Below are positions 10,270 through 11,117 of a stretch of 64,000 bases of DNA, piece by piece. The stretch is from a virus (Duplodnaviria; Caudoviricetes), in IMG/VR virus record IMGVR_UViG_3300021400_001413, positions 15,327 to 79,326 of that record, one strand, 5' to 3'. The translations under genes and the position numbers were made by a program. The notes below the pieces were generated by a model, which did no database searches, had not been told where the DNA came from, and saw nothing but the letters and a program-made list of their open reading frames with translations. Each line of letters begins with the position of its first letter. Position 1 is the first letter of the stretch.

Positions 10270-10446
10270 AAGCTGAATTGTTTTGTTGTAAGATTAATAG
10301 TAGTCTCAATGAGAATCGAACTCATATCTAAGGTTTAGGAAACCTTTGTTCTATCCATTGAACTATAAGACCAAATGCCTGCCACTGTAGGCTTAACATT
10401 TAAAGAAAAATTTGAAACGAATATGTCGCTCTCTCAGCGAGTAAAG

Positions 10447-11117
10447 TGATTCTGCTGGGGCTCGAACCCAGGACCTACTGCTTAGTTTGCTACTCTATGT
10501 TACCATAGCCAAACAAAGATAGTATCCTTTCTTCCTCCTCCTAAGTTTCCCCAGGCGATACTAAGTTATTTCATAGGGCTAACCCTTTGTTTGTTGTAGT
10601 CTGGAATACATTATTACTATATTGAAATTCTTGCAAGATTAGATTTACTTATATAGTCCTTTCTTTTATTTTTCCGTATCTTGTCCTACAGCTTAACGTA
10701 TTCACCATAGGGGAGCGCAGTTTATTTCACCTGAAAATACTTAAACTAACTTCATAAGTCTAAAATTTCAACTTAGGCATTCTTATCAGATACATCTGAA
10801 TAGAATGTGAGGGTATTCAATATATTTCCCTCATATCTCCTATATACTCTCTACACATTTATGAAGGAAGAAACTCATATTCATTTCTTTGTAGATTGAC
10901 CTTCAATTTAGCACGGTATTATCCTTACACATTATTGGTTAGTGTTGTGGTTCCTCCGCCATACTTAAGCCACACATTATAAATTGCAGGTTTGAAGGGA
11001 AGGACTTTCACCGTTTTAGGGAGATTCTACTATGGGATTTCTCGCCATAGCACTCCTGTTTATTTATTCACAGAAACATTTGAAGGCAGTTGCTCTATCC
11101 AGCTGAGCTACAGAACC
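10447..11117 (-). tRNA. tRNA-Arg(UCU), intron-split (exon 1 11117-11083, exon 2 10485-10447)
   Basis: Joined exons read GGTTCTGTAGCTCAGCTGGATAGAGCAACTGCCTT|CTAAGCAGTAGGTCCTGGGTTCGAGCCCCAGCAGAATCA. This is a full cloverleaf with anticodon stem ACTGC/GCAGT, loop CU-UCU-AA, TTCGA T-loop and the A20 Arg identity base; CCA is not encoded. Confidence 0.9.
10486..11082 (-). mobile_element. group I-like intron (597 nt, no homing endonuclease ORF)
   Basis: Core pairings in canonical order on the minus strand: P3 AUCUCC(C)U 11025-11018 / AGGAGAU 10841-10835; P4 ACGGUG 11014-11009 / UACCGU 10918-10913; P5 GUCCUU / AAGGAU; P7 GAGAGUA 10851-10845 / UAUUCC 10608-10603; GNRA hairpin CUAUG-GUAA-CAUAG 10508-10495. 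Confidence 0.8.

Follow-up and report, generated by a model that had tools for sequence, protein, structure and literature searches.

An A at the omega position of a group I intron that splits a tRNA-Arg(UCU) gene in a crAss-like phage

The window analyzed here, a 64,000-nucleotide stretch of DNA belonging to a 79-kb IMG/VR virus record, contains a tRNA-Arg(UCU) gene (coordinates 11117–10447 on the minus strand, as are all window features described below) that is split between U34 and C35 by a 597 nt, ORF-less insert (10486–11082). An nhmmer profile, a subfamily alignment, and the predicted pairing identify this insert as a canonical group I intron, and its last nucleotide is A10486 at a position where all of the aligned relatives have G. 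We consider it probable that this private G-to-A change at the omega position blocks or slows exon ligation, such that the locus would represent a dispensable phage tRNA gene in an allele that has recently lost its function. The intron is of a known kind, the tRNA anticodon-loop group I introns of bacteria and phages, here in a crAss-like phage.

The split gene is reported by ARAGORN as tRNA-Arg(tct) when introns are allowed, and without the intron option only the neighboring tRNA-Arg(CCU) gene is found, which is intact, adjacent to and downstream of the split gene (10300–10372), and also recognized by Rfam (69 bits). The 5′ exon (11083–11117) provides the acceptor, the D arm with A20, the 5′ strand of the anticodon stem, and C32, U33, and U34; the 3′ exon (10447–10485) provides C35, U36, A37, A38, the 3′ strand of the anticodon stem, the variable loop, the T arm, the acceptor, and a discriminator A. 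Both exons are intact, and the anticodon stem is ACUGC/GCAGU. Annotated cyanophage tRNA-Arg genes are 89–93% identical to the 5′ half (11117–11083), and the 3′ exon (10485–10447) is close to that of the relative L056. Among the proteins encoded by the virus record are a terminase, a portal protein, and a major head protein, the last of these being ~48% identical to head proteins of crAss-like Bacteroides phages. Group I introns have been reported in protein genes of crAss-like phages, in an account that does not mention tRNA introns (PMC7886860).

A synteny search using the neighboring 153-aa protein, for which the contig search found no exact copy, identified four related phages with no tRNA at the locus. 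One close phage relative, G001 (95% complete, with a neighboring protein that is 82% identical), lacks the tRNA-Arg(UCU) gene and its intron altogether, and the gene is therefore probably dispensable for the phage, its loss being tolerable.

The insert has no ORF of at least 40 aa on its own strand, and searches of the window with Rfam, both at gathering thresholds and at E-values up to 10, gave no match to group I, group II, ROOL, or GOLLD RNAs. The RF00028 model misses this copy because of the long peripheral inserts; the relative L047 does pass, scoring 50.3 bits where the gathering cutoff is 50, and the register of P3, P4–P6, J6/7, P7, P8, and J8/7 was taken from its RF00028 alignment. An nhmmer profile built from 12 short family members, none of them from the long subfamily to which the window copy belongs, yields three colinear matches, all of them inside the insert (E = 3.7e-8, 0.0018, and 0.0035). 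We wrote out the structure as P1–P9 with a P3/P7 pseudoknot and counted pairs explicitly on these same 12 family sequences; 86% of the cells are paired compared to 34–44% when the partners are slid, none of 500 shuffles attains the observed score, and 30 pairs vary on both sides. In the pairing check the window copy forms every helix of the proposed structure, and the conserved group I core (P3–P8, the P3/P7 pseudoknot, the P4–P6 domain, and J8/7) can be recognized in it.

Reading from the 5′ end, a first CAAA is followed by a P1-loop extension hairpin, CUGU/ACAG (11059–11073), which is common to the relatives L056 and L058; in L058 the ACAG strand is AUAG, with the pairing kept as a G.U. Beyond the internal guide is the P2 hairpin GCUAUGG...CCAUAGU (11029–11051), a conserved block in the 12-member subfamily whose pairing was checked, and then the 5′ strand of P3, AUCUCC(C)UA (11017–11025), which pairs with 10842–10835; four of the P3 pairs are altered on both sides in the family. 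The P4–P5 domain (10913–11014) includes P4 (11014–11009 / 10918–10913), P5 (11005–11000 / 10926–10921), and an extended L5, with the profile, covariation, and pairing all bearing on its placement, and is followed by P6, UGAAGG/CCUUCA (10862–10905), which covaries in the family. The 5′ strand of P7, G-A(bulge)-G-A-G-U-A-U, is at 10844–10851 by the RF00028 alignment of L047. Two extra hairpins at the P7.1/P7.2 position (10778–10834), placed using the aligned subfamily, lie between the 3′ strand of P3 and P8, and P8 itself has a long peripheral extension (10617–10777; subfamily alignment and pairing check). J8/7 (UAAUAAUG) and the 3′ strand of P7, UAUUCC, occupy 10603–10616, again in the L047 register. 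The 3′ domain (10489–10600) is closed by the helix (A)CUAC/GUAG(C) (10600–10596 / 10493–10489) and contains P9a, CAAACAAAG/CUUUGUUUG (10593–10585 / 10518–10510), and a GNRA hairpin, CUAUG-GUAA-CAUAG (10508–10495), all by pairing check. The closing helix is present in all members, and its fifth pair covaries in L054 and L059 (CCUAC with GUAGG). The segment GUGUAGAGAGUAUAUAGGAG was first read as J8/7 and the 3′ strand of P7, and the Rfam alignment of L047 assigns it to J6/7, the 5′ strand of P7, and the 3′ strand of P3.

The earlier note on this DNA saw no clear U.G P1 helix, but such a helix is present. The internal guide AGGAG (11053–11057) pairs through its GAG with exon CUU in P1 and through its AG with C35 and U36 of the 3′ exon in P10, and as a whole is complementary to the sequence of the joined exons, CUU|CU. 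P1 is formed by exon C32-U33-U34 and intron C1 with G11056-G11055-A11054-G11053 (CUUC/GGAG), and the U.G wobble at the 5′ splice site is between U34 (coordinate 11083) and G11055. P10, made up of the pairs C35–G11056 and U36–A11057 in antiparallel order, is only 2 bp, and there is an analogous P10 pairing (AA/UU) in the tRNA-Leu copies and in the tRNA-Arg copies at 36/37. Six of the seven relatives in tRNA-Arg(UCU) at 34/35 that have a readable 5′ junction share the AGGAG guide, the other (L059) having UGGAG, while at the tRNA-Leu junction ACUU|AA the guide is UUGAGU and at the tRNA-Arg 36/37 junction UCU|AA it is UUGGAU. The guide sequence, as read from these alignments, tracks the exon context over three insertion sites. 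Within the P1 loop, UUUCUGU...ACAGGAG (11053–11076) can also be drawn as a possible 7-bp hairpin, conserved in L056 and L058, whose internal UUUC mimics exon CUUC on the guide GGAG; this hairpin could compete with formation of P1.

To restore the 7-nt anticodon loop CUUCUAA, the segment 11082–10486, which ends in A, must be removed, or a segment shifted by one in register and ending in AC, as was recognized previously. The P10 pairing, the match of the guide to its exon context, and the nine homologous introns inserted at this site together establish A10486|C10485 as the 3′ splice site. The intron thus ends in A rather than G, 4 nt past its last G (G10490). The observation in the earlier note that this G follows GUA, and that splicing at it would give an 11-nt loop (CUUCAAACUAA), is confirmed, as is the pairing of GUAG with CUAC (10599–10596) directly past P7; G10490 is not omega but a structural base in the conserved CUAC/GUAG helix.

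On sequence grounds, the insert belongs to a large family of group I introns whose members occupy the anticodon loops of tRNA genes in phages and in bacteria of the gut or rumen. A 21-mer of its 3′ hairpin, GGCTATGGTAACATAGAGTAG, recurs in 37 other viral contigs and, among bacterial genomes, in 33 contigs, most of them from Ruminococcus and Oscillospiraceae; in every case the match falls within a tRNA gene. Family inserts range in length from 207 to 1109 nt, and the majority are tRNA-Leu(UAA) introns located after U34, with a few in tRNA-Arg(UCU) after U36 (L026 and L032). A metagenome scan (motif, NNNN, then CTAAGC) identified nine tRNA-Arg(UCU) genes that are interrupted, like the window gene, between U34 and C35, and pattern scans of viral contigs with the exact 5′ junction and with the Arg-type 3′ junction gave no match. 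The closest relatives, L056 and L058, agree with the window in their exons, in the AGGAG guide, and in having the P1-loop hairpin. Other parts of the intron have their nearest counterparts elsewhere: the L5 extension (P4–P5 domain, 10921–11005) is nearly identical to that of L015, a tRNA-Leu intron, the P8 extension (10617–10777) is nearly identical to that of L032, a tRNA-Arg 36/37 intron, and the two hairpins at 10778–10834 are shared, within the aligned subfamily, by the window, L050, and L027 and by no other member. The window intron is in this respect a mosaic, and its makeup suggests recombination between copies in different tRNA genes and phages.

Several family members have additional features. 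L048 and L050 have an extra element within the 3′ strand of P7, between GUAUU and CC; in L048 (4275–4790, plus strand) it encodes a 171-aa I-HmuI-like HNH homing endonuclease (NUMOD4, HNH_3, and NUMOD1), and in L050 just the flanking hairpin sequences are present. Two members occur in one tRNA cluster in the metagenome contig L066 (JAEEGL016694362.1), a 282-nt copy in tRNA-Arg(UCU) and a 243-nt copy in tRNA-Leu(UAA), both at 34/35. L082 (JAFRFD010000017.1), from a MAG labelled Methanobrevibacter, contains a copy of the 3′ motif, after which come UAUG and the 3′ half of what resembles a tRNA; the contig is probably of phage or bacterial origin and was mis-binned. Similar archaeal-labelled cases have been suspected of mis-binning (Williams 2020, doi 10.1101/2020.01.27.920355). 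G003 (IMGVR_UViG_3300028833_000001), a 361-kb phage record related through the neighboring protein, has short matches to blocks of the window intron at 340077–340394, and these probably correspond to another member of the family.

The window intron shares with the tRNA-Leu(UAA) intron of cyanobacteria and plastids (Leu.3Ug; Williams 2020) its site after U34 (CUU|), the GAG that reads CUU in P1, and the core. It differs in its host gene (the tRNA-Arg(UCU) of a crAss-like phage), in having A at omega, in being missed by RF00028, and in its 597 nt length, with large extensions in L1, L5, P8, and P9 in addition to the two extra hairpins between P3 and P8. The tRNA-Leu(UAA) intron and bacterial tRNA introns are marked as subgroup IC3 in the group I database, according to Williams 2020 (doi 10.1101/2020.01.27.920355). 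The introns of Agrobacterium tRNA-Arg(CCU) and Azoarcus tRNA-Ile(CAU) (Arg.5Ug and Ile2.5Ug; Williams 2020) are, like that of the window, bacterial-type group I introns of the anticodon loop; L026 and L032 occupy the site equivalent to theirs, 36/37 of tRNA-Arg(UCU), whereas the window intron is at 34/35, where its AGGAG guide fits.

The sequence CAAA is present at both ends of the insert (11082–11079 and 10489–10486), as was noted earlier, but it does not constitute a meaningful duplication. Identical 4-mers at the two ends have a ~0.6% likelihood of arising by chance at the given base composition. The 5′ CAAA is the start of the P1-loop hairpin segment that is common to L058 (CAAAU) and L056 (CAAU), and the 3′ CAAA stands where the relatives have their NNNG tail in the alignment; because the two have separate origins there is no target-site duplication. 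The repeated CAAA, together with similar hairpins near both ends (GCUAUGG...CAUAG), could be taken to indicate a transposon-like element or MITE with a CAAA target-site duplication, or else a UCA suppressor tRNA with the loop CUUCAAA. We find these readings scarcely credible, as retaining one restored copy of CAAA would make the loop 11 nt long, each CAAA has its own, different homologue in the relatives, the insert follows group I introns colinearly and is present in a single copy in the 79-kb record, and the relatives are tRNA-Arg(UCU) genes with CUU|CUAA. Moreover, the long ORFs of the phage, of up to 2096 aa, are open in the standard code, and no UGA suppressor is called for. An IS605-like element or a non-intron RNA had been suspected from the subterminal hairpins and was dropped once the tRNA-intron homologues were found; membership of the IS200/IS605 type or of MITEs is likewise not indicated for a single-copy insert that has a ribozyme core and whose homologues are all in tRNA anticodon loops.

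Omega is G in more than 80 relatives. This includes 36 of 36 viral members with a readable tail (a count from which L037, with a longer tail than the other viral members, was left out), 33 of 33 bacterial members, and all nine of the tRNA-Arg(UCU) copies at 34/35. A direct viral scan gave 40 Leu-type viral copies with G and no true non-G; the single viral non-G match, preceding AAAATC in L103, is outside any tRNA and is a chance match. The tails that follow the 3′ motif are 4 nt long (5 in a few) and end in G (UAAG, CAGG, UAGG, UACG, CAAG, UAUG, GAAG, and UGAAG), L056 and L058 ending in UAAG| and UAUG|, respectively, and among the relatives with a readable tail the CAAA of the window copy has no counterpart. 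The earlier note had allowed that relatives might have a normal U/G boundary with CAAA as a private mutation, and this is the situation that we observe.

There is little to suggest that the A is an artefact. It is repeated in the Logan contig L102 (run SRR873599), which was found through an exact match to the 128-aa downstream protein and does not differ from the window anywhere in a 549-nt overlap that takes in both of the sites with private G-to-A changes described below, although the sample is possibly not independent. An assembly error at the junction, which the earlier note had raised, could be entertained for a single-base difference in a metagenome-assembled contig, as could a minority variant in a phage population that truly has omega-G. 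However, L102 was built with a different assembler and has the same 549 nt, which makes an assembler artefact unlikely, and we regard error and minority variation together as very unlikely explanations.

The guanosine-binding pocket in P7 shows no sign of having been rewired to accommodate the A. G10849, by the register taken from Rfam, is the counterpart of the guanosine-binding base G264 of Tetrahymena and pairs with C10604, next to the bulged A10850 and a flanking G10851-C10603 pair. Both of these P7 G-C pairs are constant in 12 of 12 family members while neighboring P7 pairs covary, and both P7 strands are letter-for-letter the same in the window and in omega-G relatives such as L050, L056, and L058. 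In L026, the tRNA-Arg(UCU) copy with its intron at 36/37, there is a U in place of the G-binding G in the 5′ strand of P7 (GUAGAUAGUAU compared to GUAGAGAGUAU) with omega-G kept, and this is possibly another crippled copy of the family.

A switch in nucleoside specificity, with adenosine or omega-A being used, would make sense of an intron ending in A. There is an engineered precedent in a Tetrahymena ribozyme reportedly made by Been and Perrotta (1991, Science 252:434; cited in PMC2588497), in which G414A, giving omega-A, was combined with a change of G264:C311 to A:U; omega-A is said in that work to need this compensating P7 change, the A-U pair creating an A-specific pocket. The last base is A in both, but the window intron lacks the compensating A-U pair and its pocket stays G-C, with the usual bulged A and flanking G-C pair and with P7 strands no different from those of omega-G relatives. 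A rewired chemistry is thus highly improbable, and by this comparison the window copy resembles an uncompensated, ligation-defective single mutant rather than the rewired ribozyme. Similarly, the non-canonical splice-site chemistry that the earlier note proposed is not supported for an intron whose core, P7 G-binding pair, P1, and P10 are canonical and as in the omega-G relatives, and its alternative of a second processing step is without support. Its third suggestion, an inactivated intron with a 4-nt duplication, fares better in part, inactivation being the best reading, with a single omega G-to-A change and not a duplication as the cause.

The window copy otherwise has few changes of its own. 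We counted private changes at those columns of the intron alignment where the remaining 11 members of the subfamily do not vary (161–169 columns, 163 for the window), and the window has two, both G-to-A, one at omega (10486) and one at 10618, where the inner C-G pair (with C10776) that lies at the base of P8 becomes C x A. The other subfamily members have from 0 to 8 private changes each, and the two in the window are within this range. The pattern of substitutions thus argues against any general or long-term decay of this intron copy, and as the exons are also intact, either the mutation is recent or the intron has kept some of its activity.

The second of these possibilities would be realized if omega-A were tolerated, with ligation at A10486|C10485 proceeding more slowly at a site placed by P10 and the 3′ helix, and with some tRNA-Arg(UCU) being made. 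The intact exons and core, the formation of all of the helices, the ordinary load of private substitutions, and an allele dominant enough to be recovered in two assemblies are all consistent with this. However, the invariance of omega-G in the relatives, the unchanged G-specific pocket, and the weakening of P8 by the second change at 10618 are difficult to reconcile with tolerance, as is the finding among 5292 bacterial tRNA introns, which have U-1/G-omega in 98.5% of raw calls, that the sole sizeable exception class alters the -1 base and not omega (Williams 2020, doi 10.1101/2020.01.27.920355). We consider tolerance unlikely, though not far-fetched. Because the copy shows no other damage to speak of and was recovered by two assemblies, a broader form of the idea can also be entertained, in which omega-A is recurrent, and tolerated or exploited, in phage tRNA genes, for example with slow or conditional ligation throttling the phage tRNA; we think this distinctly improbable.

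The reading that we favor is that of a canonical intron disabled at its last base. A single guanosine site serves both steps of splicing, and omega-G must fill it for exon ligation (PMC2588497). From such work on other group I introns we infer a splicing defect here, in which free guanosine would still cut the 5′ splice site, A10486 would dock poorly in the G-specific pocket, and exon ligation would be blocked or very slow, this last step being the one expected to fail because there is an A at omega and an unchanged pocket. The gene would then give rise to little or no mature tRNA-Arg(UCU), and the locus would presumably be a recently inactivated allele that the phage can afford.

The apparent non-canonical splicing at this locus can thus be accounted for by the mutation of one base in a group I intron of the ordinary kind, and no new chemistry is needed. 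The intron family to which it belongs is large and modular, is found in tRNA genes of phages and of rumen and gut Firmicutes, and is mostly missed by the standard Rfam model. It has been retargeted between tRNA-Leu and two tRNA-Arg(UCU) sites, with the guide sequence changing to match. The window copy is an omega-A allele found in nature, with no compensating change and with a core that is otherwise intact, and it offers a ready-made test of how stringent the need for omega-G is in the ligation of exons by a tRNA intron.
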